Part shown: positions 1 through 35,600 of the stretch, piece by piece
How positions within the stretch are numbered: position 1 is the first letter of the stretch
Layout: each line of letters starts with the position of its first letter
Notes under the pieces: generated by a model
The model's input: only the letters and a program-made list of their open reading frames with translations
Told to the model about the DNA's origin: nothing
Database searches by the model: none
Position numbers and translations under genes: made by a program
IMG/VR virus record: IMGVR_UViG_3300030108_003689
Span: 1 to 64,000 of that record
DNA from: a virus
Reading direction: 5' to 3' (one strand)
Length of the DNA stretch: 64,000 nucleotides

Positions 1-1
1 T

Positions 2-412
2 ATGAGCGATACACACACACAGCCCAAGGTTGACTTCATCCACAATCAAGTAGAGAACAGGCTGCAAAGCCTGCGCTCTCTTCTGGAGGGTGAGTACGCC
101 AGCGCGGCACAGTCCCCTGACCATGAGCCCGGACCATGGAGCCCGGAGAAGCAGGCTCACGTTGAGGCCATCTCCGATGCGATAGCGCATCTCGACCGCG
201 TATCGCGCGCCATTGACCACGCTAACTGGTGCGCCCTGGCTCGCATGCGAGCAGCCGAGATCGCAGAACAGAAAGAGCAAGAGCAGCTTGCAGCCATGGA
301 GCATGGCACCACCGGACGCAATGACGCTGCCGGTTCACCCCTGGGGCAGGCAGGACACTGCCCGCACTGTCTCAAAGACTACGGCAGCGGCCACCACTGC
401 TGCGACTGCTGA
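2..412 (+). CDS. hypothetical early protein with C-terminal Cys/His cluster
   Basis: 136-aa ORF; ends HCPHC...HHCCDC; 5' context lies outside the window. Confidence 0.6.
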   Translation: MSDTHTQPKVDFIHNQVENRLQSLRSLLEGEYASAAQSPDHEPGPWSPEKQAHVEAISDAIAHLDRVSRAIDHANWCALARMRAAEIAEQKEQEQLAAMEHGTTGRNDAAGSPLGQAGHCPHCLKDYGSGHHCCDC

Positions 413-421
413 GGAGCAACC

Positions 422-496
422 ATGTACCTGACCGAATGCAACATCGCAGCCCTGTGCCTACTGGCACTTCAAATCATCTCACTACTGGCCTACTGA
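422..496 (+). CDS. 24-aa hydrophobic micropeptide (MYLTECNIAALCLLALQIISLLAY)
   Basis: GAGGAG SD just upstream of the ATG; fills the gap between neighbouring genes; below the ORF-track size cutoff. Confidence 0.55.
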   Translation: MYLTECNIAALCLLALQIISLLAY

Positions 497-506
497 GGAG
501 ACACTC

Positions 507-707
507 ATGCCACGAACATTCCGACTCTCATTCGACATCTCAGCCGAGGCTGACCCCTCTGACCTTCTCGACCGGCTCATCGACTTCCAGCAGCAACTGG
601 TGGATGAGCTTGATGAGGGCGAGGACGTCTTCGGCGAGCCCGTCCCCAACCATGCAACCGCCGACACTTGCAGTGTCGAGCACATCACAATCAAAGGAGG
701 TGAGTGA
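507..707 (+). CDS. small acidic protein ending KGGE
   Basis: GAGGAG SD; TGATG overlap with the next gene. Confidence 0.75.
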   Translation: MPRTFRLSFDISAEADPSDLLDRLIDFQQQLVDELDEGEDVFGEPVPNHATADTCSVEHITIKGGE

Positions 708-982
708 TGACCAAGGCAGAACTTCAGGCGTGGGCCAAGCGGCAGATAGACAAAGAGGACCAGCCCAACACCAATGTTCTCATCTACAAAGGTGAGCAAG
801 ACTATGAAGAGAACAATGACCACCACGGTGCTCTGTTCGACTTCATGCTTTTCGAAGAGGCTCTCGACCATGTAGCGCCAGGACGGATGTTCTGTTGCTA
901 CGTGTACGACGCCCACCCCGACTCTGGAGACTACACCTGCTTCGATTGTGTGGACTTCATACTTCCATCAGGAGGCCAGTAA
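707..982 (+). CDS. hypothetical acidic protein ending GGQ
   Basis: GGAGGTGA SD; TGATG coupling upstream and TAATG coupling downstream. Confidence 0.75.
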   Translation: MTKAELQAWAKRQIDKEDQPNTNVLIYKGEQDYEENNDHHGALFDFMLFEEALDHVAPGRMFCCYVYDAHPDSGDYTCFDCVDFILPSGGQ

Positions 983-1593
983 TGCCTACACCAACTATTC
1001 ACGTCCATACTTTCGCCAAGCGTCAGACAGCCGAGTCCCGGTTCAGTCACACAACGATGACCTGGGATGAGCTTGCCGACAGCGCGCGGTTCGCCTTTTA
1101 CGCTGGCAAATCCAGCAGGTTCCAACCTCGCGCACTTGAGGTGCAAGTCAATCCGAATGAGTGCTTCACCGGCATTGTCGCGCTCAACCACGGCGACGAG
1201 TTGGTCGCGTCATTCGAGAGCCGCCGGGAGGGCGAGGCCCCACGTAAGGTACTCCAGGCCGCAAACAAGGGCGCCGGTACACACAAGATGCAGGCCAAGT
1301 CCGCATACGTTGTGCTGTTCCCGTCCACCCTACTGGCTGAGACTGGTGACAACGAGCTTGAACCAGTGGAGGGTAACTGGGAGATCATCAGCCTGAACGC
1401 CAGCCCGACCAAGAAGGACACGCCGATTGACCCTGACACCCTCATGCACAACCACTTCGGTAGTGACGGCGGCACAGCTACCGGCCTGAGTGACGCTGCC
1501 TTCGTCAAGGCATTGCGGGAGTCATTCCGGTTCTGGCAAGACAAGGCCATGCTGGCGAACCTTGAACCAACCGTGGTCGAGGTCGAGGAATAG
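982..1593 (+). CDS. DUF3228-like protein
   Basis: Motifs WEIISLNA, PIDPDTLMHN..G..GG and ESFRFWQDKA resemble DUF3228; start moved to the coupled ATG at 982. Confidence 0.6.
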   Translation: MPTPTIHVHTFAKRQTAESRFSHTTMTWDELADSARFAFYAGKSSRFQPRALEVQVNPNECFTGIVALNHGDELVASFESRREGEAPRKVLQAANKGAGTHKMQAKSAYVVLFPSTLLAETGDNELEPVEGNWEIISLNASPTKKDTPIDPDTLMHNHFGSDGGTATGLSDAAFVKALRESFRFWQDKAMLANLEPTVVEVEE

Positions 1594-1646
1594 TATTCCG
1601 GGAGAGGGAGCGGTTTGGGGTCCGCTTATTAAAACCCCCCACTTAT

Positions 1647-1731
1647 GTCCGAGTGGTGGAATCGGTAGACACAGGAGACTTAAAATCTCCCGGCTAATGC
1701 TGTGCGGGTTCGACTCCCGCCTCGGACACCA
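1647..1731 (+). tRNA. trnL: tRNA-Leu (anticodon UAA), CCA encoded
   Basis: Acceptor GTCCGAG/CTCGGAC; anticodon arm GGAGA-CTTAAAA-TCTCC; long variable arm; T arm GCGGG-TTCGACT-CCCGC; ends ACCA. Confidence 0.95.
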
Positions 1732-1753
1732 TCAACAAACAGGAGCAATACCA

Positions 1754-2107
1754 ATGGATGAATCAAGATACACAAACTACCCAAATGCATGGTGTCCACT
1801 AACGGACCCACACCGCGCCATGCTGGAGGCCGTCATCACCCTCGGCTTTGCCAAGGACGCCATTAAGAATGCGGAGGCTGAGTCCACAGATGAGTGGCGG
1901 GCCAATACCGCAATCTCGGCACTCAAGTGGATTGTGAACCACTTGGATTTGCACTTCAGTGAAGACTGGGAGGCGCACTGTGCTGGCAGGCAAGAGCTTG
2001 CGGCAAAGGTTCTCGCAGACCAAGCCATGGATGAGGACGACTTCGTTCAGGCTGGGATTGCAGCCCGTGAAGCCCTCAAGAACATCAAACAACAAGGAGG
2101 TGAGTGA
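1754..2107 (+). CDS. hypothetical protein ending GGE
   Basis: AGGAG SD before the ATG at 1754; the upstream extension in the track overlaps the tRNA. Confidence 0.75.
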   Translation: MDESRYTNYPNAWCPLTDPHRAMLEAVITLGFAKDAIKNAEAESTDEWRANTAISALKWIVNHLDLHFSEDWEAHCAGRQELAAKVLADQAMDEDDFVQAGIAAREALKNIKQQGGE

Positions 2108-2472
2108 TGTGTGCAGACAGAGACCAGCCGGGGTTGGACGTTGATTTACACAAGGAAGAGCGGGACATGACCATCGTTGCCCTTCGGTTGATGCTCGACA
2201 AGTACGGCCAAGATGACCACGAGAGTGCAGTCGCCAAGTGGTTGCTGCGGTTGCTGGAGTCGAGGAACAAGTGGATTGGCGGTGGAGACTTGAAGTTTGC
2301 CTTTGGCGGACTGATGGACTCCATGGGCTACGGCGCCACGCCGAAGAGTCTGGTAGACAGGCTCGGGTGGTCAGTCGAGGAGTTCGATGGTCAGTGTGAC
2401 CTCGTCGATGGGTTCGCCGACCAAGTCCAAGTTCCTGCCCTGTACGTCGTCGATACCGAAGGAGGTGAGTGA
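2107..2472 (+). CDS. hypothetical protein ending GGE
   Basis: TGATG coupling at both ends. Confidence 0.7.
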   Translation: MCADRDQPGLDVDLHKEERDMTIVALRLMLDKYGQDDHESAVAKWLLRLLESRNKWIGGGDLKFAFGGLMDSMGYGATPKSLVDRLGWSVEEFDGQCDLVDGFADQVQVPALYVVDTEGGE

Positions 2473-2954
2473 TGAACATCTTCGTCCTCGACCGTTCACC
2501 CGGCATCGCAGCACGCATGCAGTGTGACCGTCACGTCGTCAAGATGACCCTGGAGAGCGCACAGATGCTCGCCACGGCTGTCAACAAGTTGGGTGGGCAG
2601 ACCCCTTACAAGTCTGCTCACCTCAACCACCCATGCTCTGTGTGGGCCCGTGAGACCCTCGGCAACTTCATCTGGCTCTATGACCACGGCATGGCCCTCG
2701 CGAAGGAGTACACGCGCCGCTACGGCAAGGTACACAAGTCCGAGGCCATCATCCAAGAGTGCATGGACCAGTGCCGAGACCTGTCTCTGTACAACCTCAA
2801 GCGCACGCCTCACCCGCTGTGCATGCCTGACGAGTACAAGACTGACGATGCCGTCGAATCCTATCGGCGGTTCTACATCGGAGAGAAGGCTGGGTTCGCC
2901 CAGTGGAACAAAAAAACGAAGGCCCCGACATGGTGGCCAGGAGAGCAATCATGA
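2472..2954 (+). CDS. pyrimidine-dimer DNA glycosylase (T4 endonuclease V-related family)
   Basis: MNIFVLD, DRHVVKMTLESAQML, HLNHPCSVW and EYTRRYGKVHKS are hallmark motifs of this phage family. Confidence 0.85.
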   Translation: MNIFVLDRSPGIAARMQCDRHVVKMTLESAQMLATAVNKLGGQTPYKSAHLNHPCSVWARETLGNFIWLYDHGMALAKEYTRRYGKVHKSEAIIQECMDQCRDLSLYNLKRTPHPLCMPDEYKTDDAVESYRRFYIGEKAGFAQWNKKTKAPTWWPGEQS

Positions 2955-3286
2955 GAGTTTATAGATTGGACCAGAACCTTATCAACTTGGGCGAGGATAT
3001 CTGGGCGCCCGCAAGTGGCGGCGGCGTATACTACCGCTCGCATGTCGAGGCCAGGAAGAAGGCCAATGCAGCCATCAAAGCCTTCAGTTCAAGGCAGAAA
3101 GAGTACGACCCTGGATTTCGGTTCGCTGATGTTCAATGGGGAGCCTTCATCACCATCACGGCTTGTGACTTCGACAAGACCGGAAAGGACACCTTGATTC
3201 GTCTCCTCAATGGTGAGGGCGGCAACTTCAAGAAGGAGCAACTCGTTGAAGAGTGGAACCCTCAAACTAAATGGAGGAAGGAATGA
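2951..3286 (+). CDS. hypothetical protein
   Basis: GGAGAG SD; ATGA overlap. Confidence 0.7.
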   Translation: MRVYRLDQNLINLGEDIWAPASGGGVYYRSHVEARKKANAAIKAFSSRQKEYDPGFRFADVQWGAFITITACDFDKTGKDTLIRLLNGEGGNFKKEQLVEEWNPQTKWRKE

Positions 3287-3537
3287 AACAGAAGTCCATC
3301 ATCACAGAAGAAGTCAGAATATTTTTGAATCAAGAGAATGTCTCAACGAAGAAAAAGACCACGGTGATGGTCTTCGTCGATGACTCATTTACTGATTCGA
3401 CTTCAATGATTGAGATTGAAATAGTAGACGGTGAACTGTTTGTCTACGCTGACGACGACCGCGAACCACACGACGGCAAGCTGATGTTCAACATCAGTCC
3501 CATCGGTGAAATCCTACAATACAACGGAGGAGAGTGA
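3283..3537 (+). CDS. hypothetical protein ending GGE
   Basis: GGAGG SD; ATGA overlap. Confidence 0.7.
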   Translation: MKQKSIITEEVRIFLNQENVSTKKKTTVMVFVDDSFTDSTSMIEIEIVDGELFVYADDDREPHDGKLMFNISPIGEILQYNGGE

Positions 3538-3896
3538 TGCCACTTTCATACGTACCACCAGAAGAAGCATTCGAGGTTCGCATTCAGTGTACCGAGAAGC
3601 AAATCCAACGGCACTGTGATGCTGCCCCTGAGAACGACCGTCGAGACTTCGACGACCAGGGAGGGCTTCAAGTCCCGGTGTACCACGTCTACAAGAACGG
3701 CAACATCAGCAACCGCATGACGTACTGGTACACGTTCGACGAGGCCGAGGGTGAGGACAACGAGTTCGACATCCGCGAACTGCCTACCTTCAGCCTCAAG
3801 AGCTTGTCCCATCAGGACCTGCTCCAAGGCTGCCTGAAGCGTGGAATGGTCCGCATCGAGAACAACAAGCTGGTCATCTTAGTAGGAGGAGAGTGA
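3537..3896 (+). CDS. hypothetical protein ending GGE
   Basis: TGATG coupling at both ends. Confidence 0.7.
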   Translation: MPLSYVPPEEAFEVRIQCTEKQIQRHCDAAPENDRRDFDDQGGLQVPVYHVYKNGNISNRMTYWYTFDEAEGEDNEFDIRELPTFSLKSLSHQDLLQGCLKRGMVRIENNKLVILVGGE

Positions 3897-4075
3897 TGGA
3901 CCTGAGTGACGAGAGGTTTCACATGCGGACGATCCCCTGGGCCAAGCTGGAGACCGAGGGCGTTGACGCCCGCAAGGTGATGAAGGAAGCGCAAAAGCAG
4001 AAGATGTGGAAGTTGGCCCGCAAAGCCGAGCACAGATGGCACAACCAGCGTTTGCGAATCGAGAGGGAGGCATGA
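3896..4075 (+). CDS. small basic hypothetical protein
   Basis: Coupled start; ATGA overlap with the next gene. Confidence 0.6.
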   Translation: MDLSDERFHMRTIPWAKLETEGVDARKVMKEAQKQKMWKLARKAEHRWHNQRLRIEREA

Positions 4076-4461
4076 GGGGTAACCGTAAATGCGGGACCTG
4101 TGACGCATGCTGTACTGTGCTGGAGATTCCATCCGTGCCAAGTGAGATCGGGAAGCCTTGCACTCACATGACCGGCTCTGGCACTAAGCGTTGCGGCATC
4201 TACGCTCAACGGCCCTCTGAGTGCCAGGGCTTTGTGTGTCATTGGCTTGCTGGCATTGGGCCATCATCATCCCGGCCTGACCGCTCGGGGATCATGGCTC
4301 ACCTTGCTGGTGAGTTCGGTGAGATTGTAGTCGCTCACATCCTTAGAGAGGGTGCTGATACGACACAGAAGGGACGAGCAGTGCTCGAAGACCTAATGCG
4401 CGACACCAGGGCAGCGGGCATGCAGATGCTCATCAGACGGTCGTACATACAGATTGATTGA
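4072..4461 (+). CDS. YkgJ-like CxxCxxCC cysteine-cluster (Zn/Fe-S) protein
   Basis: CGTCDACC...C...CGIYAQRPSECQGFVCHWL. Confidence 0.8.
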   Translation: MRGNRKCGTCDACCTVLEIPSVPSEIGKPCTHMTGSGTKRCGIYAQRPSECQGFVCHWLAGIGPSSSRPDRSGIMAHLAGEFGEIVVAHILREGADTTQKGRAVLEDLMRDTRAAGMQMLIRRSYIQID

Positions 4462-4591
4462 CATTCCATGTCGGACCTAATCGAAGCGCTGCGTACTTAT
4501 GAGTGAAGACTCATGTCGCGGGTCTAACCGGCCCCGTTCTCCTCAATGAAGCACCCTGCTTCACCAACATAACAAACAAAAGGAAATAACA

Positions 4592-5422
4592 ATGTATAGA
4601 CCGACTAAGCCGAGTGACCTGAGCCGATTGATTGTAAAGTACGCGACCGAGGGCAAGCTCCAGTGCTTCCGTAAAGTCGAGGAGTCCGAGTACAAAATCT
4701 TGTGCTGGGAGTACGAGATGAATGGAGGCAAAAGTCCTGACTGCCGTCAGTGGGTAAAGCCTGGAGACTTCATCTCTTCGCACATCGTCCGCATGGACGA
4801 TTCATTGTACGGAGACAGGGCCCCATCTTCAGCCAAGGCTGCACTACGGATCATGGCCGAGAGTTGTGACATTGCCAATATTCCAGATTGCATCGAGTGT
4901 GAATCACTCTATCAGGTAGCGTTGCTTCACACTGACCTTGACCGCTGGATTGAGAACCACTCCTTCCCGTGGGCAAGGCGAATGGTATCCGCAATTGGGT
5001 ATGTCAGCGTGGAAGACCTGTTCGAGCGCGAGGACATGACATTCGTTGGAGATAGCAACATCTTCGATGATGACGGAACTTTCGAGAAGTGGTCCCAGCC
5101 ATTGTGGGAAAACTGGAAATCCATCGCGCTCTGCACTGCCCTAAGGGAAGGCAAGGTTGATGACTGGCATGACATTGACCAGCGAATGAAGGGTCTTCAA
5201 AACACTTTCCAAATCAACCAGTGGCAGGCATCAGTCCTAACAGGCCTCTCGAACCATGAGCTTGCTCTTAGTCAAGTCGAGATGCTCCTCAGCCTCTTTG
5301 AAGACTACGAGGCCCGTATCCGACGACAAAGACAGTACGACTCGGAGGGGCCACTGCGGATACCCGAAGCAGTGGTGGGTCAACTGACTTATGTCCGCGA
5401 CTTGTTAGTGAGCCATAACTGA
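4592..5422 (+). CDS. hypothetical protein
   Basis: 276-aa ORF with AAGGA SD. Confidence 0.75.
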   Translation: MYRPTKPSDLSRLIVKYATEGKLQCFRKVEESEYKILCWEYEMNGGKSPDCRQWVKPGDFISSHIVRMDDSLYGDRAPSSAKAALRIMAESCDIANIPDCIECESLYQVALLHTDLDRWIENHSFPWARRMVSAIGYVSVEDLFEREDMTFVGDSNIFDDDGTFEKWSQPLWENWKSIALCTALREGKVDDWHDIDQRMKGLQNTFQINQWQASVLTGLSNHELALSQVEMLLSLFEDYEARIRRQRQYDSEGPLRIPEAVVGQLTYVRDLLVSHN

Positions 5423-5435
5423 CATACTTGACACA
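5423..5435 (+). promoter_or_regulatory. CAYACTTGACAYA box (copy 1)
   Basis: Intergenic motif containing TTGACA, repeated at 5785 and 8024. Confidence 0.45.
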
Positions 5436-5473
5436 ACCAACCATCCAGTTAACAGACAGGAAAGGAGAGAAAA

Positions 5474-5755
5474 ATGAAGTGGACTGATTCAAGAGGATTG
5501 CCCCTCGACAAATGCAAGGTCGGCATAGAGTTGACCCGTGAGATCGAAGACGAAGAAACGGGTGAAGTCATTGAAGAACAAGTCATTGATGTCACCGTAA
5601 CCTTCTGGCCAGCCGAACCAGACGTTGGCCTCGGCCCAGGGGTTGAGGTCATATCTGCTCACCGCTCCGACACTAAAGAGCGGGAGCCGGTGGAGCTTGA
5701 CGACTGGGAGGTTGACTCATTGATCGATCTTCTGCAAGAGCAGAGACGGACATAA
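5474..5755 (+). CDS. small acidic hypothetical protein
   Basis: AGGAGAG SD; 93 aa. Confidence 0.75.
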   Translation: MKWTDSRGLPLDKCKVGIELTREIEDEETGEVIEEQVIDVTVTFWPAEPDVGLGPGVEVISAHRSDTKEREPVELDDWEVDSLIDLLQEQRRT

Positions 5756-5780
5756 TCTGTCCGAAGTTTTTAGTTTTTTT
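5748..5780 (+). terminator. probable intrinsic terminator
   Basis: CGGACA-TAATC-TGTCCG hairpin followed by T runs. Confidence 0.5.
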
Positions 5781-5784
5781 ATGT

Positions 5785-5797
5785 CATACTTGACATA
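5785..5797 (+). promoter_or_regulatory. CAYACTTGACAYA box (copy 2), overlapping the palindrome TGTCA-TACT-TGACA
   Basis: Repeated intergenic motif. Confidence 0.45.
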
Positions 5798-5826
5798 CAA
5801 TGGTTCAATCCAAAAGGAGCAAACTC

Positions 5827-8022
5827 ATGAGTAAAATCGGTCGGCCTGACAATGGCAAGAACAGGACTGGAACCAAGCGCGACAAGCAAAAGATGCGAGG
5901 CAAAATCAAGAACATCAGCAAAAAGATCTTGAAGCTGTATCCCAACGGCAGCTTCGGAGATGAGCACCTTGACGAGAATATCTGGGCATCGAACGGTGGA
6001 GAACATCCGCACAAAGGCCAGGACTTGATGGAGAGCTACATAGCCCATCAAGCGTTGGCTGGACGGATCTACCAGGATGACGCCTTTCGTCTGATCGAAC
6101 TGGTCAAAGAGGCAAAGTCGTTGGGCGACTTGGTTGATACGATGTACACCAAACGTTGGTACACCTTGAACCGAGATGTGCAGGGCGTTGTACCTAACTT
6201 TCGTTTCGCTCGTGTAGGTCATATAAACTTCTGGGAACACGTAGAATACGGACTCTTGACGCGCCCAACATTGGCGGAGTTCATCATTCACGAGACGAAG
6301 GGTCTCAAAAGGACAGAAGAGAGCTTGGCGGAAGTTGAGGCGGCATTGATGGAGTACGATCACAATGCTGGCCCAATCGGTGCTCGGAATGATTGGGCTC
6401 ATGCGGGTGAAGTGTTCATGGAAAGGATGGACTTGCTGCGACTCAGATCGGACGGAACCCTCTTGAGCGAGGAGCAAGTCCAAGAAGAGCTACTGACTTT
6501 CGACGAAGCGAACGAACGAATGAAGACGCTTAAGTTGTCTTCTTCTGCGGACGAAGCACGGAACAGGATTCAATCAGCGCAGACAGATCATCGGAGGTCT
6601 TACGATAACGATTCTTTCATGCAACGACGCTTCAATCTTGTGAAGGACGATGCCGCAAACCTGAATGCGCCTCAATGCTTGTTTAGTATTTTGAACACCA
6701 GACTGGATAACTTTCTGATTCAACGCCACCCTGCATATCAAGCAGGGTTTCGTAAAGATTGGACGTGGCACCCATCTGTGTGCGACTCAACAAGCAAGCA
6801 TGAAAAGGCGTTTCAATACTTCAAGCAAACCTTGAAGTGCCCTGGCATGTTTGCTGTGCCAACTTGGTGGTATGGCGAGGTCCAGCACATGTACGCTCTA
6901 TCTGTCACTCAGCACTTGACTAAAGACTTCGATGAGCCATTCCCTACGGGATCGTTCAAGAGCGTCATTTCAAGGGCTTCTGGTTGGTACAAACGCCTGG
7001 AAGAATCCAATCCGATTCTTTACGAGGACCACGCCAGAAGATCGATTGAATACATGAGAGATCGTAACTCCGCCGAGGAGTACCCGGAAATGGTTCCGTT
7101 TAAGACGACGTTCATCAATCTGGAGGACGAATCAAATGCAGGTCACCTGATCTACAACAGGAGTCTGAACCAGTTTGGTCAGGTTCGCCAGCACATGGTG
7201 CCTACAATGGCTCATGCTCCTGATGGCAGGCTGGTCGCCTTGGATATTATTTTCCAAAGCGGGTTCTACTTCAGAGAGAGTGACGAAGACAATCCACTTG
7301 GACGCAGGGTGATCTACGGCTTGTACCACGGCTACGTGATCAATCGTGAAGATTGCCCTTCTGGAATGGACTTTATTCGCATTTCGATGGTCTGCCCCTT
7401 CCACATTGATGGTCAATGGTATCCGCATCTTGCTGAGTTTGACGGTCACCTGTGCGAACAGTCTCCGATCATTCCGGTAATTGGCATGATGATTGATGCT
7501 TTGAATGAGCATAAGACGGTAGTTCGAAACTTCACCAGGGCAGAGCGTAAGCGCAGCGTCAAGGTTGGCAAAAGCTCTGGTGTAGGCAAAGTAAGCCCAC
7601 GCCGATATACACGAGTGCAGATGTCCTCAGGTACAACGTCAATACCTCCGATTGAGGATTGTCCACTGATGCGTCTGCCCAAGTGGAAGCTGTCAAAGCG
7701 AGTCCGGTGCCGTAAGCATGAGCGATGCTATGTCCGTGATGGCTCGCTGCCTATCGGAAAGGATCACTTCGATCTGCTTTCTTCTCGTGGCTACACGATC
7801 TACAAAGACAATCTTGAGATCGGTCCACGAGACCTGAAGCGATTGAAGCTTCGTGATGTAGAGTTACCTAATGGATATAGGTGGGTAGCTATTCGAACCA
7901 TCATCGTCGAAGAGTATGAGAAAGGACCAGAAGACGAAGAGATTGTGCCGCTTGTGCTTGTGCCTCAGAACAAAGTACTGAAGGATTCAGCAGACTTTGA
8001 ACTTAGCGCGATCAACAAATAA
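5827..8022 (+). CDS. large hypothetical protein (about 730 aa)
   Basis: AGGAG SD before the ATG at 5827; basic N- and C-terminal segments; no family recognised. Confidence 0.8.
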   Translation: MSKIGRPDNGKNRTGTKRDKQKMRGKIKNISKKILKLYPNGSFGDEHLDENIWASNGGEHPHKGQDLMESYIAHQALAGRIYQDDAFRLIELVKEAKSLGDLVDTMYTKRWYTLNRDVQGVVPNFRFARVGHINFWEHVEYGLLTRPTLAEFIIHETKGLKRTEESLAEVEAALMEYDHNAGPIGARNDWAHAGEVFMERMDLLRLRSDGTLLSEEQVQEELLTFDEANERMKTLKLSSSADEARNRIQSAQTDHRRSYDNDSFMQRRFNLVKDDAANLNAPQCLFSILNTRLDNFLIQRHPAYQAGFRKDWTWHPSVCDSTSKHEKAFQYFKQTLKCPGMFAVPTWWYGEVQHMYALSVTQHLTKDFDEPFPTGSFKSVISRASGWYKRLEESNPILYEDHARRSIEYMRDRNSAEEYPEMVPFKTTFINLEDESNAGHLIYNRSLNQFGQVRQHMVPTMAHAPDGRLVALDIIFQSGFYFRESDEDNPLGRRVIYGLYHGYVINREDCPSGMDFIRISMVCPFHIDGQWYPHLAEFDGHLCEQSPIIPVIGMMIDALNEHKTVVRNFTRAERKRSVKVGKSSGVGKVSPRRYTRVQMSSGTTSIPPIEDCPLMRLPKWKLSKRVRCRKHERCYVRDGSLPIGKDHFDLLSSRGYTIYKDNLEIGPRDLKRLKLRDVELPNGYRWVAIRTIIVEEYEKGPEDEEIVPLVLVPQNKVLKDSADFELSAINK

Positions 8023-14489: not shown

Positions 14490-15401
14490 ATGCCAAACGA
14501 CTTGCCTACTATAGGCAGCAGTAGCATCGGAGCGATACTCGGCCTTTCGCCCTGGAGTAGTCCATGGGATGTATGGGCCAGGGCACATGGGTTGACTGAA
14601 AGCTCATCATCAGCAGCGACTCAACGAGGACACATCCTCGAACCGGCAATCGGAGCGCACTACGCACACCTAAATAACGTTCAAATCAAAAGCGGACCCG
14701 CATACGAGGCCGATCCAATCATAGGACCGGAAGAGTGGATGCACGCTCGTCCCGATTTCTTTGTCACCTCAGACAGTGCAAAGTGGTTGCTTGAGATCAA
14801 ATCTACTCGAAAATTCGATCACAGGTGGGGCTTTTCTGGTACAAACTCAGTCCCACCGTACTATGCCGCCCAGTGTGTTTGGCAGATGGCGGTAACTGAC
14901 GATGACCGATGCGATCTTGCGGCCTTCGCCACGATGTCAGACGAGTATAGGTGCTTCAACATTTATCGAGACAAGTCAGTGGAATCCAAGATTCTTGACT
15001 ATGTGCGCGACTGGTATGACAAGCACATACGTGCTGGCGCTCCGCCCGAAGTTGATGGATCAACAGCCTGCTCTAAGTCTTTAGCAAAGCTCTTCGAGCA
15101 AGAATCCAAGACATTCATCGAGCCTTCTGATACCCACATCGAGTTGGCGGCAAAGCTGAAAGACATACGCCGACAATGCGCCGAGCTTGACGATCAAAAG
15201 CGTCGTTTGGAAAATCAACTCAAAGAACAGATTGGCACCGCATATGGTATTGCTGGTGTCGCAACATGGTCCCAGAGCAAACCAAGAAGTCGATTCGATA
15301 GATCATCTTTCGAAGCCGACAACCCAGACCTCGCCAAGAAGTACATCATAGAAGGCGAACCAACCAGAACATTCAGATTCAACTACACAGGAGAGAAATA
15401 A
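14490..15401 (+). CDS. YqaJ/lambda-type recombination exonuclease
   Basis: IGSS..GAILGLSPW, RGHILEP, ARPDF, LLEIKS, YAAQCVWQMAV. Confidence 0.9.
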   Translation: MPNDLPTIGSSSIGAILGLSPWSSPWDVWARAHGLTESSSSAATQRGHILEPAIGAHYAHLNNVQIKSGPAYEADPIIGPEEWMHARPDFFVTSDSAKWLLEIKSTRKFDHRWGFSGTNSVPPYYAAQCVWQMAVTDDDRCDLAAFATMSDEYRCFNIYRDKSVESKILDYVRDWYDKHIRAGAPPEVDGSTACSKSLAKLFEQESKTFIEPSDTHIELAAKLKDIRRQCAELDDQKRRLENQLKEQIGTAYGIAGVATWSQSKPRSRFDRSSFEADNPDLAKKYIIEGEPTRTFRFNYTGEK

Positions 15402-16225
15402 TGGCTAACGCACTACATCCAGCAGTTCAGTTTAGAAACAACGTCGAGTCCAAGGCTTCTGATTTTCTTCAGACGATGGTAGGCACAGAAGAAGGAGCGC
15501 AGGCCGCTGGTCGAGTTGCGCTGGCATTTAGACAAGCAGCACAGGTCAATGACCGTCTGTACTCTTGTGACCCAGCCTCGGTCGCCCAGGCGGTTGCCTT
15601 GTCTGCTATGACTGGTCTTATGCCCGGTGGGCCACTGCCTGACGTTTACTTGCTACCAAGAGGCAAAACGCTTCAATGGCAAGTATCCCACCGAGGGTTC
15701 GCCAAGCTCGCCGCCAGGGGAGGAGTCCGACTCCGAACCAAGGCTGTGTTTGAAAGCGACACGTTCCATGTCATCGAAGGAACGGAGCCAAAGCTGGAAC
15801 ACGTACCAGACCTAAACGCACAACAATCATGGGAATCTCTTACAGCGGTATACGTAGTTGCACACTACAAGGACGGCTCTAAAGACTTTGTCGTCATCCG
15901 TAAGGCCGACATCGAAAAGCGTAGGGCCAACTCCGATGCCTGGAAGCGAAACAAGAACCAATCCCCATGGGGCCAGTGGCCTATCGAGATGGCACTCAAG
16001 ACTGGACTTAGGTATGCGTTTGCTCGCGGCATCGTCCCTATGGATGATACAACTTCCAATGCCTATGATCATGATGGCAAGCAAGATGCCATAGCTGAGG
16101 ATCTCAAAGTCGTTGAGATGAATGATATTCCTGAGATGGATTCTATGAATCTGTTGACCGAACAACTCGACGAGCTTTCAGAGGTTAAGGAGAAAGAGAA
16201 GGAAGAATCCGTACTCGAAGATTAG
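15401..16225 (+). CDS. recT: RecT-family single-strand annealing recombinase
   Basis: Follows the YqaJ gene; GLMP..YLLP, SHRGFAKLA.R, SPW..W..EMALKT.LR. Confidence 0.85.
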   Translation: MANALHPAVQFRNNVESKASDFLQTMVGTEEGAQAAGRVALAFRQAAQVNDRLYSCDPASVAQAVALSAMTGLMPGGPLPDVYLLPRGKTLQWQVSHRGFAKLAARGGVRLRTKAVFESDTFHVIEGTEPKLEHVPDLNAQQSWESLTAVYVVAHYKDGSKDFVVIRKADIEKRRANSDAWKRNKNQSPWGQWPIEMALKTGLRYAFARGIVPMDDTTSNAYDHDGKQDAIAEDLKVVEMNDIPEMDSMNLLTEQLDELSEVKEKEKEESVLED

Positions 16226-26600: not shown

Positions 26601-29600
26601 CTATTGTTCATTGTCGATAGGAGCAGTACGCTCCAGAATTCTTTGTTGTGCTTCATTGCGTCTAATAGCTTCTGCTGACTTCTTAGCGTGTTGTTTATAT
26701 TTCCAGTACGCCAATTTTTTCCAAGTTTGAGGGTGCCAAGCTGAAAAACCTATAGTTCGGCCAATTTCAGTCGGGTAAAATTGGTCAGCATAAACATTAT
26801 ATGTCGAACCGTCTTTGCTTTTGTAGGCTACTCCATACTTCCTGAGCGTAGGAATACTCGCGGTCGTTATTTGATCCGCTCGCTTGACGGCCTCTTTAGC
26901 ACCATCCTTTGCCAATCCTGGCTCTGTTGGGCTGACATACGCTTGAGCTATTCCTGCATCATCGGGAACACTGACACGAATATCCTTCTCCTTGACGAAG
27001 CCGAGAACCTGAAGGGCTCCGATATTTGAAAGAATCGGCTTATCTGGATTCAAAGATTTCAGCGCATGCGTCAAATCCATCAACCCTTCGACAACACCCG
27101 CGTTCGCACGAGATAGCGCCCAAAGGTTGTCTCCCATCCGACCAGTCACTGGAGTTTGCAAGTACTCCATCAAGAATAGATACGCTTTCGTGTTTTTGGC
27201 AACAAAGATGCCTCTCCCAGGCATTTCGATGTTTCGTTCGTTCACTCGTCGCTTTTCTTTATCGTCCCACACGAAACGAATGTTTTCTGGCTCGATGTAC
27301 TCGATGCCCAAAATGTCATGTAGTGTTCCGCCAGTAAACTCCAAATCGAACTCAACAAGCTCTGCTGGAACCTGTAAGGTTGCCCTTTCAAGCGGGAAGC
27401 CAAGACCAGGATCAATGCCGAACGTTACGGCAGCCCCAAGACCTAACTGAGGCGCCAGTCTCGAGAAGACACCAAGCCTAGCTGCTCTGGAAGACTCATC
27501 TCCTCCAGTAAATGGAAGCGCCAAGAAGAGTTCAAGCAACAAGCCAACAGAGTCACCAGTCAGCAAGAATGGAAGCCTGAATCTTTGGCCCATGATTTCG
27601 AACGGTAAAAACGATCGATATCTATCCCATGGAGACAACATCAGGTCTGGGTCCTTGGACTCCGTAGCCTTCAACTGCGTGTTTCTCGCAAACTTAAGCT
27701 GAGTAATCACTCGGTCAGGGTTTTCCAACAATGAAGTGAACAGCAGCTTGTTTGCCTGCGAGAAGTATGTATAGAAAGCGAAATACCGCTTGAAGTAACT
27801 TGCCTCAGCATCACTCAGATCAGAGTAATCCAGCATAATCTTGCGAGTTTTCTTGGCGGCATCGTCTAAAGTGGCACCAGCTTTAAGCTCTCTCACCAAC
27901 ACCTTTATTCTCATGTAGGTGTCAATAGCGACGAATGATTCCCTATAGAACCTATGCGCTTTGCTGAAGATGTTTCCAGGCTTCAGAGACTGAGCCATGC
28001 TCATTCCGAATGCTGCACTCAAAAGCGCACTCTGTGGGCCAAGTGGAGCACCTATTAGGCCAAACATCGCTCCATTGATCCAAGTCGGATTTGCTTGAGT
28101 AAACCGCTCATAGAACTGATCGTATAAATTATTGCTGGCTAAAGCATCAGCAAACGCACTCTTCCAGCCATATCGATCAACAGTGTTCGCCAACATGTCG
28201 GCAGTAATGATTCGGCCATCTGGTAATACCAGCGGCTTTGTACGGGGCCTATGCGAGCCGTCACCGAAAAGTCTGGCCAGTGTTCCTGCTACAAACTGGA
28301 TCTCTACGTCCGCAGCCTCTGCAATGTTTCTGACCAGCGGAGTGACCTCGGAGGCTACCCTGGCGCCTGTTCCTGGTGCTTCAAGAAGGTCTTGTGTCGC
28401 AGCTAAGACGCCTTGTCCGAGGTGAACCTGACTGAGACCACCGATGAATACGCCCATTCCGTAGCCCACCATAGGTAAGCCACCGACACCAATCAAAAGA
28501 CCAGTGTAGAACGTTCTTGGTGATACTAAAAACTCAGCCGCTCTTTGCCAAACCAAAGCCGCATTTGCAATCTGCTCTTTGATTCTTTGAGAGTTTTGCG
28601 TAGACGCATCTTTCAACTCAAGTTGATACTCGGCTCTACCAGTTCTACCCCATGTTTTTTTGAAACGAGCGTTCGGATACGTTTCTTGAGCCCAGCTTTC
28701 AAGCTGATCAACCATGTTCTTAGGCATGATGAACTGCTTGTCACCAATCATAATGATTTCAGCGGTGCCGTCATCAATACGAATACCTGCACGCTTCAGT
28801 ATCTGATCGGCCTCATATTGTGCTGACTTATCAATACGGGTGATAACGTCGGAGTCTGGCCTTTTTGCTGATGGCTTCTCGGTAGGCCCGTACATGTCTT
28901 TCACGGGCTTCTGCGCGATTCTGACCTTTCGTCCAAACTGCAGATCACTGAACCCAGCCACTTCATCGGACTTACTCAGGGTACGATCGATGTAGAACAG
29001 TACTCGATCTACGTACTTGCTCCTACTGATGTTGATTTCACCTTTAAGATCAAGATTGTTTGTTATTGATCTGCGCGACAAGTCGTAACCATTTTCGGCA
29101 AGCTCTCGGGCCAAACCGAACCGAACATCATCGACTTTCAACATGATCATCAGAGCCATCAAGGCTTGATTCAAGTCTGGAGTCTTTGTAGAGTACTTCA
29201 CTCCGAGTTGATCAGCGATCGGCCTCGATACTCCCTCGATGATTTTACCCATCAAGCCCAGTTTCTTGCTGTACTGGAATACTTGTCGTGGCGTCTGCGC
29301 TTCTGGTGCGCGTCGGATCTTTTTAGGTGTTCCGATATCCAGCAGACCCTTGATGTCACCTCTGTAGAACTTTTGATATATATCGATCACTAAAGGGTCG
29401 TTCAAATCGAATTGAGTGGCTTGCTTGATAGCAAGAATCTTTTCGAAGACATTGGTAGAAAAAGACTCAACATACTGCTTCTTTTCTCGCAGTCCTTCGT
29501 GAATCACCTGGATAGCATCAGCAATTGTTGCTCGATCGGTTGTGGTGAACTCTGCGGCGTCCTGAGCGTACTTCAATCGTTCATTGAAAATACGAAGCTG

Positions 29601-32600
29601 ATTGATAGCCTCTCTCTCCCTAGGGGTCATTCCATACGGACCATCAAGCAGGTCCTGCATGAGGGCAATCTTCCTACCAATCTCTTGAAGGGTTACGCCA
29701 CCACCTGGGGACATCTTGCCGAGGGCTGCATCGTCCAAATCAAACGGATCATAGGTTGTGGGAATAGGCTTTCCAGCCTCCTCCGCTTCCGCGACTCTAG
29801 CTGCGGCCTTCGCCTCCATTTTTTGGATAGAGCCATCCAAAGTTCCAACAATTTCAAAAAGCGAGCGAACGCTGGAAAGGTTCACTCTTGGTGTGTGTAA
29901 AGAAACATCATATTGGAAGAAATCATACAGAGTATCGATAGCCTTCAACTCTGGATCATTAGCAAGCCTAATAATCGACTTACCGGCATTCATGATCATT
30001 CGCCCATAACCGTCAAGAATTTCCACCATATTCGGGTCGGTGGTCATTTCTGAGATTTCTTTCTTCTTGCGCGTCGTCTCAGCTATTTTCCTAAGAGCCT
30101 CTCCTATGCCTTCGAATTGTTCCCTGTTTTCGAAGAACGATGCCATCCTCATTAAGTATCCAGGATGAGTCGTGTTCCTGCTACGCCTGTTTAATGGGGT
30201 CGCAACAATGTCAGTTACAACATTTCTGATCGTGTTGTATTCATCGACCGAAATCAGTCTCAAGTTGACATCGGGATCGAGCAAAGAGAATGGGATCAAA
30301 TCTGCTTCAGGTTGGTTACCGATTTCTTGTATCAGTGTTTTCAATCCCGCCTGAGCACGATCGTCCAAGACAATGAACCCGGTTTCTTGAACGCGCTTGT
30401 TTATCTGCTCATTTGACTCATTGAAAAATCTAGCAGCAAATCGATTCCTGTAAGAAAGAATATCAACGTCCGTGACACCATCCGGGATGGTGTCGGGGTC
30501 AGCCAACGAGTTCAACCCACTACGATTTGGCTGTTCAATTTGCTTGGTGATTGTTTCCGGGTCCATCCCAAGGGCATCAATAAATCTGTTTGTAGACTTA
30601 TCTGTGATGGTTTTGAGGATCGCAACAGGGACGTGGTATCGACCAGAGCCAACAGGCGTCATTGGCTTATTGGCCAAGCTTTTCCTAAACGCAGTGTTTT
30701 TGATCAATGCATATACTTCGAGGCCAGCATCAATCGCGTCATACTCTCTGGGATCGTATGAGCGCTCTAATACGCGCTGTCTTTCGCCCGTGTTTAGATC
30801 AGTCTCAAAGCGAATCCTGTTTTGCTTCCGATCACCGAGAAGGGAGTGCATGGTCTCTGAGTCAAAACCAAGCTCCATTGCAACTCGCTTACGAGCCTTG
30901 TCTGCATCCGGGCTATACAAAATTCGCTCTTGTTGGGTAGCCCTCAGCTTGGTGTACTTAGGCCGCTTATTTAAGGCAGCATTTGTAATTGCTTGAACGT
31001 TACGCCTATCTTTCGGTGCTTCACCAAACTCAAGGTCCCAATACTGGCGAACCTCATTGGGAAGAAGCCCAGGCTTCTTTCGAATGCGAGACCAAAGATT
31101 GTGCAGAGAAATCCAAAGCTCGTCCATCAGCCTTCTTACGAAGCCGTTTGGATTGTCTCGAACCCTCCGGTAGTACCTCCAGGCCTCCGCAAATTGCTCA
31201 TGACCCAGATCGGTGAGTGATCGAGTTCCGTCATCCATCAACTCATTATCGAAGTAGCGGAAAAGCTTATCCGTAAACTCTCTGCCCATGAGCGTGGCCA
31301 TGAAGTGGCCGTTCTCGTGCCAAAGGGTGTCAAGATCGCCCTTCTCGAACAGGTTGATGATTGCCTTGCGAGTACGCTGATCGTACTCGAAGTAACCGAG
31401 TGGCACGCCCTCCTTACGCTGGAACCTTGTGTCTGGATCACCGTCTTCGACTAAACGAAGCACTGTGGGCTCAACAGGATCTTTCGTTTGATCTTCTCCA
31501 AGCCCTGTTCTTCGGAGGTCTTTGTTTCCAGGATTCAGGAGGTCTGATTCTGCTCCTGCCGCATCTCTTGCTCTTCCCGAATCAGGTCTAAGTTCTCCGG
31601 TTCCACTGGAGTATCGGTCGAGAGCCACATTTTCGTTATCAGTTGCTCTTCTTCCGTATCTTCTGATGAGTTTGTCAAGGTTGTCGCGGTCGACAGACGC
31701 TCGATGATACCAGGGAGTATTCTCAAATTTTTCATTTTGTATGCTCCATCCTTTCGGAATTACTCGATCTTCTACTTTTACTCTTTCTTTATGTCGTTTG
31801 ATTTCACCAAAAAAGTCTGAATATGCTGCGGCATCGAATACGTAATTTACCCCATCTTGGGTCGCCATGACAAATGTTTGTTGACCGTCGGGCATAACCG
31901 CGTACTTGATACCGTACCGGAACATGCCGAACTTGCCTTCGCTTACGTATGCGCCTACTGCTGGATCGTCATACCCAAGAGCTTGCTTCAGAATCACTGC
32001 AAGCGTGTCGTGACCGACCTCTTGTCCGCTATTGATGACCCATGTTTCCCAATGAAGTCGACCGATGCTTCCTTCACCTTCTCGACCAGCGAGTCGATAT
32101 GCCTCATCGATGCTGCCCAACAGCAGGCTTTCGATGGCCTCATACAAGATTGCGCCACGACCACCCGATAAAACATCTGCCAATCCTCGGGACGCAGAAT
32201 ATGGCCTCGGGTTTTTGAGCCACTTCTTCCAAGACGCATCCGATGTGGGCTTTGAAAAGCCCTCGTAGAGATCCATTTGAGTGCCATCTCTGCGAAGAAC
32301 TCCATCACCGAGAAGGTTCTCAGCCTGACCCCAGAAGTGATTCGCTTGAATGCGGTCAATAACGATGACATCAGTTCGGCCAGCAGCCAACAACATGAAG
32401 GAGATTACCTTGTTGTCGATACCAGACGATTGATAGATTTGATGGAACAATCGTCGAGCTTGCTGACCACTAATGGATTGATCAAGCAAGATAGAGTGCC
32501 ATGCAGCCAGCTTGGTTTGTCCTGCATACGGATGGCCCTCGGGCAAAATTTCGCTGGATTGAGACAGAAAGTTTTTACCAAATGCCCGTAGGTTTGCCGC

Positions 32601-35600
32601 AGCCGGATTACCTGCACCCTCAATTCTTAAGGCAGGGGCGAAACCAACTAATTTACCAAACTCATCAGGTGTTATCTTTTCCTCACGAAGTAGTGCCGCC
32701 GCGTCTTTTCGGGCGTCAACCATAGTCTCCGTGATTTTTTCATTAGCTTTTTTATTATCAGCCAAAGCAGGCAAAAGCTGAGTTTTAAATCTATCTGCTT
32801 GATCTTCGTCGATTACGTTTCGATTCAACAAATCATTGATTGTATCAGCATCGCGTCCGACGAATAGTGTGTGTGTGGCCTGATCGATATCGCCATCAGC
32901 AAGCATCTTGTCTGCCGCACGCTGCCGATGAACGCCACCAACCCATACGTCGTACTCGAGCATCATTTTCGCGTCGAAAGTACCTTCGACCGCAGACCTA
33001 ATGAAACCATCCAAGTTCTTTTGAAAGACGCTTGCCGGAGGTGAGTTGAGGAAGATGTCTAAGAAGGCGCTTTCATGCGGGAACGCAGACAGGCTTCGAC
33101 TTAGAATCGCCCAAGCGAGAAGTTGGGCGGTGACATTTGCCTCAGCAATCCCGGTGTTGTACAGATTGCCGAGACCCTCAACCAACTCCATACCGCCATC
33201 GGCGCGCTTTTTTTGCTCTGGTGTTAGCCTGTTCAACTCCGCTGCAAGGCTCTCAGGATTAGCATATGTTCTGAGTTTCAGCGGTGGCCGAAGAACCTGC
33301 TTAGTATCGGTGATGCCTCCCCACCATTGATTCCAATCCTCGTCGGACAAGATGGGATTACGACCATCTAATAATTCGGTGTGATTGTCCGCCTTTTCGA
33401 ATGATGCTGCCGCATTTTTGGTATTCGTTCCTTTTGGTACAGGCTTTTCTTTGAATTTTTTCCTGCTGGGGTTCTTTCTCGTGAGAGGATCAGGCACACC
33501 GGAGTGCGTCTTGGCTTGGTACTTCTTTTTCTCGGCAGCCAGTTTTTTCCGGTCTACTTTAACAACAGCGGGCTTCTCAACTTTCATTTGAGCTTTGAAG
33601 AGTCTGTCTTTAAGTTCTAAGCGCTCGGCGTCTGAAAAATCTTCGAGATTTGATTTACCAAATTTCTTTTCTAAATCAGCCTTGAAGACCGGGTCAGTTT
33701 CTTCAATATTCAAGTCGTCCATGATCGCACGAATGCGACTCAATGAGTTGTCTCGACCGAGTGGTTGACTGAAAGCATTCTCAGGCGTTTCATCAACTTC
33801 TTCCAGGCCCTTGCCCATGAATCGAGCGCCAGGACGAGCAGGGCGGTTTGTGGTAATCCTCAGACCCCCTAGAACCTCTGCTGCTGAACGATAAGGGGTA
33901 TCTGTTGCGTCTGCGATACGAGTGGCCTGAGCCTCAAGCATAGACATAAATCGAGCGGCATCGTCGGCCTTGATTCGACCGGCCTGAACAAGATCATTCA
34001 CATCAGCCAACAGAGCTTTATATTCGGGGCTGTTCTTCAATACGATGATGTCGTTCGTATCTACTGCTCGGGTAATTTTTTCAGACTGTCGTCGAACATA
34101 TTTACTGACTTGTGCCGCTTCTTGAAATGCAGCAAAAACCTCATCTGGATTTCTTCCAGTTGCGATAAGAATGTCGCTAAACAACTCACGCTCAGCAGCA
34201 TCCATCCTATCAAGTGGGTTTGGACCCTCATTAAGCTCAGCTTGCGCGTTTTGCTTGAGCAGCTTGTGGTTGGCTACTGTGGGGTCTTCTGTTCTATCGA
34301 AATCAGTGTTTTGAAGTAATCGACGCTTGGTAAGAGCAGCCCGATTCGCAGGGTGCTCAGACATAAAGACTTTACCAGCAGGGATCGCGTTGGCTCCAAC
34401 TCTACCCACGTTTCCTACTGCACGACCGATATACTTTTCGAGGTTCAGCATATCTAAACCGAACCCAAGGTTTTGAGCCAAGTTGAACTCTGGGCTCCCT
34501 CGCTCGAAGCCCTTAGCGAGCATAAGCTCTTCGTAGCCAACCTGGAATCCACCAGTGCCAGACTTTCGTCGAGCCCTGATCCGGCTTTGTAGCGTTGATT
34601 CAGGGTTTCTAATCCCCAATCCTTCGAGTAAATCAACACCGGCTGGTGTACCCACTACTGTTGGCAAGCCCAGCGTTTCCACTACAGGCAGAAGGGTGTC
34701 TGGGAAATCTTTGAAATCGACCGCAACGTCAGTTTCTGCGGCTACGGTTGGTATGAGTGCTGCCCACTGAAGAAGCTCACCAAAAAGAGTTGGAGCGTAT
34801 TGGAGACTACCGCCCTTTTTGAGCATCAAAGATTGCATCGTCCGTTGAATTTCACGTGTAGATTTTCGACCGACCTTTTCTTCGAGGAACTTTGCGTTAT
34901 CTCTTGCCCATTTTTCGACTTGGTCTGTCGTTGGCATTTGATAAATGCCTGCGCTGTTTGACTGCCTGAATTGATTGACAAACCGCAAAGGCATCGAGTT
35001 CAATAGCTGCTGTACTGCTGCTTTATTATCGCCCTCTCGAATAGCCTCAAGTGTAGCGTCAATCTTCGGATTGCCGTGGTACTCTTTGCCGCCCATGGCC
35101 ATGTCGAGCTTTACGAATTCAATAAACGCATCAACGTTAGGCTGTTCACCTTTGATGTCTGGATTCAACTCATTGTACGATTGCTCATAAAGCCAAGATT
35201 TCACCCACAGCTTCTTATTTTTATCTGAGGGATTGTGAACGCCTAAATCGATATCCTCAAAATATTGAATTGCATCCCAATCTTTATACTCGGGCTCTCT
35301 CTTTCGTCTTGCCCTTGTAAGTTGTTCACTGAGGTCTTTAATCTCTTCTTCTCTTGCTAAATTTGCCGCTTCTCGAAACTCAGGAGTTTCCTTCAGTTCG
35401 GTTTGAATTTCTGCAAGAACTTCAGCAAACTGTTGACCAGCGCTTTTTTCTCCAGATGTGTCAATACCGAGTGCTACTTCAACAGCAGTCTGTTCCAAAT
35501 CTGTGAGCTTGTCTTTTCCAGAAGCATATGAATGAGATAAAATTGAAGCTAAAGCTCTTTTACTACGCAATTGCGATAAAGCGGTTCCACCAATTGCGGC

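Follow-up and report, generated by a model that had tools for sequence, protein, structure and literature searches.

A repeated Shine-Dalgarno/stop/start joint as cassette boundary and source of Gly-Gly-Glu/Gln protein ends in the early genes of an uncultured marine phage

The window analysed here comprises bases 1-64000 of a 74,612-bp IMG/VR virus record (IMGVR_UViG_3300030108_003689) that is estimated to be complete. Near its beginning, a 14-nt motif, GGAGGNNAGTRATG, lies at six junctions between small early genes. In this motif a Shine-Dalgarno (SD) sequence, the stop codon of one gene and the start codon of the next form a single joint, and the protein encoded upstream of each copy ends in Gly-Gly-Glu or Gly-Gly-Gln. 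Our analyses make it highly probable that the joint is a standard translational coupling element, that the Gly-Gly-Glu/Gln ends are its by-product and that it is the commonest cassette boundary of the early array.

The joint and its six copies

The motif was found at 696, 971, 2096, 2461, 3526 and 3885, all on the + strand and exactly where a previous model-made reading of the DNA (the sequence-only reading) had placed it. The chance expectation is 0.01 copies, none of 100 shuffles reached six, and a search of both strands of the entire record (74,612 bp) gave no further copy. A 16-mer, AAGGAGGTGAGTGATG, that the same reading had seen at three of the junctions was counted exactly three times in the window. 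The translated open reading frames (ORFs) also agree with the ends it had listed for the upstream proteins, namely KGGE, SGGQ, QGGE, EGGE, NGGE and VGGE; no other protein in the rest of the genome ends in GG[E/Q].

The architecture of the joint is constant. At all six joints the upstream stop codon shares one base with the next ATG, as TGATG or, once, TAATG, and the SD lies in the 3' end of the upstream gene, with GGAGG placed 6 nt before the ATG. This GGAGG core is lengthened to GGAGGTGA or AAGGAGGTGA; the latter, present at three joints, is complementary without mismatch over 10 nt to the canonical 16S rRNA 3' tail. The G at -3 makes an in-frame GTG directly 5' of the ATG, giving a tandem GTG-ATG start. 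Elsewhere in the genome the SD is mostly AGGAG with a spacer of 5-6 nt. No promoter-like site was found on the + strand within 1-4700.

Origin of the Gly-Gly-Glu/Gln ends

The overlap between stop and start fixes the frame in which the upstream gene reads the joint, as GGA GGN NAG TRA, so that Gly-Gly is forced and a Gly-Gly-Glu/Gln tail results. Homologs were compared in 80 viral loci (42-96% protein identity) that were fetched using the Pyr_excise-like gene at 2472-2954 as bait. One or more members ending in GG[E/Q] were present in 28 protein families; within these, 75 tails came with a TRATG overlap and a single one did not, and even this sole exception still reads GGAGGCGAGTGAC. The same families include 53 uncoupled and 26 ATGA-coupled homologs, not one of which ends in GG[EQ]. 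When all + strand ORFs of the loci were considered, a TRATG overlap was present at 101 of the 104 GG[EQ] ends. The Pyr_excise-like family itself has a GGE or GGQ tail in 9 of its 69 members, and only when these are TRATG-coupled.

Individual genes of the array (lettered in Table 1) could be followed through the related loci, which we designate by L numbers. Gene A homologs end KGGE with TGATG in L003 and KGSA with TAATG and a degenerate SD in L008, and the homologs of gene B end SGGE or TGGE, with TGATG. For gene C, QGGE with TGATG was found in L001, L008 and L009, and TNEQ with TAA in L002, L003, L004, L025 and L038. Distant homologs of gene E end KGEE. Homologs of gene F end in GGE only if they are coupled (L001, L003 and L004), the uncoupled ones (L005, L006, L019 and L020) ending RGEI, RGKI or KMAE.

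Two further observations concern the frame and the nucleotides. A 4-nt ATGA overlap places the SD one codon earlier, and the shifted frame predicts proteins ending GGxx; this was the case for all eight upstream proteins at ATGA joints with GGAGG at the equivalent spacing. One joint of this kind, GGAGGTGCGGCATGA, lies at 73,358-73,372 of the present record, where the spacer has the same 6 nt, the ATGA overlap has 4 nt, and GGAA is the end of the upstream protein. In the 107 joints with GGAGG at -11, the last codon was GAG (98 joints), CAG (4), AAG (3) or another codon (2), and GAT and GAC were never used. Where the last residue is E, Q or K its codon is always NAG, and D does not occur, which points to a constraint on the nucleotides A(-4) and G(-3) and not on the type of residue.

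As far as sequence comparison can show, a GG[E/Q] tail is what the SD encodes once the overlap of stop and start has set the reading frame, and hence a by-product. The sequence-only reading had offered this as its null explanation, a preferred SD that yields the tail incidentally, and the null was right: the tail goes wherever the TRATG-coupled SD joint is absent. It had also asked whether GGE/Q is kept in homologs without a downstream overlap, to which the 53 uncoupled homologs, all lacking the tail, give a negative answer. Its statement that the SD forces the two glycines holds, but the accompanying statement that the last residue is left free in three of the six cases needs correction. In the GGAGGTGAG joints the 10-nt complementarity of AAGGAGGTGA requires codon 3 to begin with GA (E or D), so that these joints constrain the third residue too.

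Two explanations at the level of the protein have to be weighed against a by-product origin. According to one, a C-terminal GGE is selected as a protein feature, for instance a degron or a tag for protease resistance or export, and the SD is secondary. It is true that the last residue is never Asp, even though a GAT codon would extend the pairing of the SD, but the missing GAT and GAC are equally explained by the conserved G at -3. Given that E, Q and K all occur, with only the nucleotides AG in common, and that uncoupled homologs do without the tail, we regard selection of this kind as very improbable. The other explanation, proposed in the sequence-only reading, is that the proteins are Pup/UBact-like substrates or decoys of a host ligase of the PafA/Dop type. 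Pup ends in GGE or GGQ (PMC3769308), as the six proteins do; the product of gene A is moreover acidic and 66 aa long, and a PafA-bearing host is conceivable. The likeness to Pup/UBact is that of the C-terminal Gly-Gly-Glu/Gln. Unlike a Pup end, the tail here is encoded only by the SD and is not kept in homologs, being gone in every homolog without the TRATG and SD joint and turning into GGxx with an ATGA overlap. It is added to about 47 unrelated families, an enzyme family among them, and its last residue can be K.

Searches for a Pup system pointed the same way. The six proteins had no match to the Pup family (PF05639) in Pfam at E<=0.1, and zero matches of any kind in Pfam and PHROGs. The six frames of the whole genome gave no Pup match at E<=1, with a Corynebacterium control positive, and a Pup-ligase (PafA/Dop-family) profile had no match in the phage. 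No Pup chain was among the PDB matches to protein A at E<=10, the best of which, the ubiquitin-like domain of parkin (E 0.52), was not significant. The only hint of a host is a related 67-kb phage contig that was binned in a 'Pseudomonadota' metagenome-assembled genome. This assembly holds no Pup ligase; one was found in 2 of 41 genomes sampled from its order, a sample without taxonomy and too weak to settle the host. On these comparisons the Pup/UBact explanation is rejected, and we would give it next to no credence.

Cassette boundaries among relatives and in metagenomes

Strict copies of the motif, 114 in number, were found in 26 of 81 sequences; the more distant loci are without it, and its multiplicity is clade-specific. 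The 26 sequences contain 122 TRATG-coupled GGAGG starts, of which 107 have a 6-nt spacer and 89 have exactly TGAGTG, while the uncoupled GGAGG starts of the same clade have varied spacers and make no use of a TGAG spacer. Many of the remaining TRATG joints differ from the motif by a single mismatch, GAAGGTGAG and GGAGATGAG being examples. The variant with an AGAG spacer, GGAGGAGAGTGATG, occurs only twice among the 107 joints in the 26 loci, on either side of gene F in this phage; the pair could reflect local homogenisation, or a cassette that moved together with both flanks.

Cassettes of many kinds meet at the joint. For 88 motif joints, 47 upstream and 53 downstream protein families were counted, in 79 different pairs. 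When shuffling was computed without the bait gene, the downstream neighbour of a given upstream family differed between loci at a rate of 92% for motif joints, 85% for other TRATG joints, 88% for ATGA joints and 37-58% for gapped boundaries. Locus maps show a conserved backbone with permuted small cassettes; gene A is followed by B in this phage and by F in L003, and gene B is followed by F in L006.

Nucleotide homology breaks at the motif itself. In blocks ending at the motif in both genomes, the start offset was 0 or -1 in 16 of 18 cases and the stop offset 13-15 in 18 of 20. Identity to L003 is 99% through gene A as far as base 709, and identity to L008 and L009 is 98-99% in the tail of gene C as far as 2112; beyond these points the sequences are unrelated. 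Homology to about 20 relatives begins at 2455-2463, at joint 4.

Contigs of four independent marine/estuary runs, aligned to positions 1-6500, contained variants with the same kind of boundary. In run X8, one contig passes directly from 694 to 970, so that 275 nt with gene B are precisely lost; joint 1 is at one end, and 6 letters are common to both sides. A contig of run X5 joins 2093 to 2459, a precise 365-nt loss of gene D with joint 3 at one end and the whole 16-mer common to both sides, and a contig of run X6 joins 709 to 2461. Each of these events may have been a loss or a gain. Gene D had zero depth in two of the four runs (X4 and X5), although depth and uncovered bins were not used as evidence, and it has no homolog in the 80 related loci; it is a rare orphan cassette. 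The Logan resource is indexed on 31-letter words, and the 16-nt repeat is shorter; if the assembly words were, as we assume, of about 31 letters, the repeat alone would make no false joins. The joined contigs are most likely real molecules or real relatives.

Changes in cassette order, gains and losses thus have their breaks inside the joint. Of the boundaries in the hyperplastic array of small early-gene cassettes that this clade of uncultured marine phages carries, the joint is the most frequent. Whether gene gains and losses break exactly at the junction was a question raised in the sequence-only reading, and the block ends and contig losses, falling inside the motif, answer that they do.

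The 16-mer AAGGAGGTGAGTGATG was also looked for in IMG/VR. Among the matches listed, it stands in single copy in many unrelated viral contigs and in 3-4 copies in some; the multi-copy contigs L128, L098, L158, L103 and L001 are loci already in this clade set, and the IMG/VR contigs L096 and L156 carry it as well.

One exchange of a different kind was noted in L008. An ORF at 1542-1998 of that locus is a chimera in which the final ~29 codons of gene C (98% identical) follow, in frame, on the body of gene F (92% identical), the corresponding parts of the window being 2024-2112 (gene C) and 3521-3874 (gene F). The chimeric protein ends NIKQQGGE at a standard joint.

The features of the array and the other genes discussed are collected in Table 1. 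The genome is podovirus-like, with a terminase, a major head protein, a primase/helicase and a YqaJ exonuclease adjoining a RecT annealase. Its early genes lie on the + strand from about 68.9 kb, across the record start, to about 19 kb. The G+C content of the early array (1-4000) is 55-57%, versus 44-51% for most of the genome, which fits foreign or fast-turnover cassettes. Searches with megablast, blastn and tblastn against about 50,000 phage records found no close cultured relative, only tRNA matches or protein identities of 21-27%. For the head and terminase proteins, likewise, no close relative was found among cultured phages, and an 801-aa putative portal ORF had zero matches. Near-identical DNA is present in marine, estuary and seawater metagenomes of several studies. 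Between the DUF3228-like gene and the tRNA-Leu, the block 1592-1642 is 86-90% conserved in L011-L013, where the flanking genes differ; it may be a terminator or a processing element. The stop codon of yqaJ overlaps the start of recT (TAATG), with AGGAGAGAAA just before it, and the upstream protein ends TGEK.

Table 1 Features of the early array and other genes of the window
Feature	Position	Strand	Basis or remark
Gene A, 66 aa, acidic, ends KGGE	507..707	+	ORF; no family match
Joint 1, GGAGGTGAGTGATG: SD, 6-nt spacer, TGA overlapping ATG	696..709	+	Within 16-mer 694-709
Gene B, 91 aa, ends SGGQ; cassette that can be missing	707..982	+	ORF
Joint 2, GGAGGCCAGTAATG	971..984	+	Motif match
DUF3228-like gene, 203 aa; no coupled joint after it	982..1593	+	PF11539, E 5.8e-7
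tRNA-Leu(TAA), interrupts array	1647..1731	+	
Gene C, 117 aa, ends QGGE	1754..2107	+	ORF
Joint 3, GGAGGTGAGTGATG	2096..2109	+	16-mer at 2094-2109
Gene D, 121 aa, ends EGGE; orphan cassette	2107..2472	+	ORF
Joint 4, GGAGGTGAGTGATG	2461..2474	+	16-mer at 2459-2474
Pyrimidine-dimer-glycosylase-like (Pyr_excise-like) / phrog_624 gene, 160 aa; ATGA-coupled to next gene	2472..2954	+	
Small gene, 111 aa, ends RKE; ATGA overlap at both sides	2951..3286	+	ORF
Gene E, 84 aa, ends NGGE	3283..3537	+	ORF
Joint 5, GGAGGAGAGTGATG, rare AGAG spacer	3526..3539	+	Motif match
Gene F, 119 aa, ends VGGE	3537..3896	+	ORF
Joint 6, GGAGGAGAGTGATG, rare AGAG spacer	3885..3898	+	Motif match
Small gene, 59 aa, downstream of joint 6	3896..4075	+	ORF
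YqaJ/RecE-like exonuclease	14490..15401	+	PF09588, E 6.5e-18
RecT-family single-strand annealing protein	15401..16225	+	PF03837, E 3.2e-27
3434-aa ORF, probably giant virion or ejected protein	26601-36905	-	ORF

Mechanism, precedents and meaning

We propose that the 14-mer is a standard translational joint, made of a strong SD, a 6-nt spacer and an ATG whose A ends the upstream stop codon. A ribosome finishing one small early gene would be held by the SD and would restart on the next gene, as in termination-reinitiation coupling. Overlapping gene pairs of other organisms have been reported usually to carry an intragenic SD, and removal of the SD often to lower reinitiation (Huber et al. 2019, PMC6728339). 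The joint resembles such pairs in its TGATG (-1) overlap and in an SD placed in the upstream 3' end at the usual distance, and by analogy we infer that ribosomes reinitiate here. It differs from them in that most joints of the array have exactly the same 14-mer (89 identical spacers in 26 loci) and in its complementarity to the anti-SD of up to 10 nt. The joint probably doubles as a short homology by which any cassette could be joined in frame to any other, with expression kept.

Several points weigh against a coupling element that is at the same time the cassette boundary. An SD of 10 nt permits independent initiation too, and the predicted RNA accessibility of the joints (unpaired probability 0.49) is close to that of other starts (0.50). 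Because uncoupled GGAGG starts lack the TGAG spacer, the uniformity of the 14-mer is not explained by SD strength alone. Coupled joints other than the motif are shuffled nearly as often (85-88% vs 92%), so the motif may mark exchange points and not cause them. The gene calls of the relatives, moreover, come from a home-made caller, and loci from similar samples are not independent of each other. As a separate matter, occlusion of the joint SD by RNA structure, which would enforce strict coupling, was ruled out by the accessibility values just given.

The sequence-only reading had gone further and suggested that the junction is a microhomology at which RecT-type recombination swaps unrelated cassettes. 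That cassettes are swapped at the joint was borne out, with homology blocks and natural deletions breaking inside the motif and both YqaJ and RecT present; that microhomology is the cause of the exchange was not, as selection keeping working joints gives the same picture. In its stronger form this explanation holds that microhomology drives deletion, insertion and swapping, the 14-16-nt joint being a substrate for RecT/YqaJ annealing or for replication slippage. The uniformity of the joint would then be kept by copy-and-paste traffic and not by translation alone, which is compatible with a role in coupling. Such traffic would account for deletion endpoints that lie inside repeats, with 6 and 16 letters fitting both sides, for block ends that fall at offsets 0 and 13 of the motif, and for a gene A that is 99% identical and a gene C tail that is 98-99% identical in relatives where different genes then follow. 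It is also consistent with the exact TGAGTG spacer in 89 of 122 coupled GGAGG starts but not in uncoupled ones, with the many motif copies decayed by one mismatch, and with a phage that has RecT and YqaJ and in which no integrase was found. Yet illegitimate recombination followed by selection for working in-frame joints would leave the same traces, ATGA and other TRATG joints break about as often, and the F::C chimera of L008 broke within coding sequence, away from a joint. The single copies of the 16-mer in many unrelated viral contigs indicate that it arises readily and is an easy convergent solution. A length of 14-16 nt is also short for RecT-type annealing. On balance we lean slightly away from microhomology as the driving force, for which the PeSL cassettes discussed below (PMC2839356, PMC4122927) are a precedent in its favour.

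The closest precedent for the coupling joint as a cassette boundary is provided by the PeSL cassettes of T4-type phages (Arbiol et al. 2010, PMC2839356; Comeau et al. 2014, PMC4122927). The two have in common a conserved expression signal that recurs where the small orphan genes of a hyperplastic early region meet and that bounds the insertions, deletions and replacements by which relatives differ; in both, a cassette that has moved keeps its expression. The PeSL is a promoter-plus-terminator unit of ~100 bp that acts in transcription, whereas the joint described here has 14-16 nt, belongs to translation and lies partly in the upstream coding sequence, where it leaves a GGE scar on the protein. 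With integron cassettes the array shares promoterless genes in one orientation that are shuffled at a repeated boundary element. Unlike an integron, it has no attC-like structured site, the motif not being an imperfect inverted repeat as read from its letters, and no tyrosine integrase (no PF00589 match in the genome); its boundary is an SD/stop/start overlap. No direct precedent for an SD-microhomology mosaic joint in phages was found in the literature. More tentatively still, the SD/stop/start joint may be the translational counterpart of the T4 PeSL, at which RecT/YqaJ or slippage excises, inserts and permutes cassettes. If this is true, a new gene would be expressed at once, at the cost of a GGE scar left on the protein encoded upstream. 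Modular shuffling at repeated expression signals is already known, and a translational joint of 14-16 nt would appear to be a variant of it.

The by-product origin of the tails removes a tempting false lead, in that Pup-like GGE/GGQ ends can arise wholesale from a ribosome-binding site. Since an SD alone can yield such ends, scans for C-terminal motifs in phages need a control for downstream starts. The joint suggests a simple design rule for synthetic polycistronic arrays. For the marine phage clade itself, the finding is that a single standard joint connects dozens of small early genes unrelated to one another, with natural gains and losses of single cassettes exactly there. Early accessory genes usually house anti-defence and host-takeover functions, and the array is therefore a clean natural system in which to follow gene shuffling without loss of expression.

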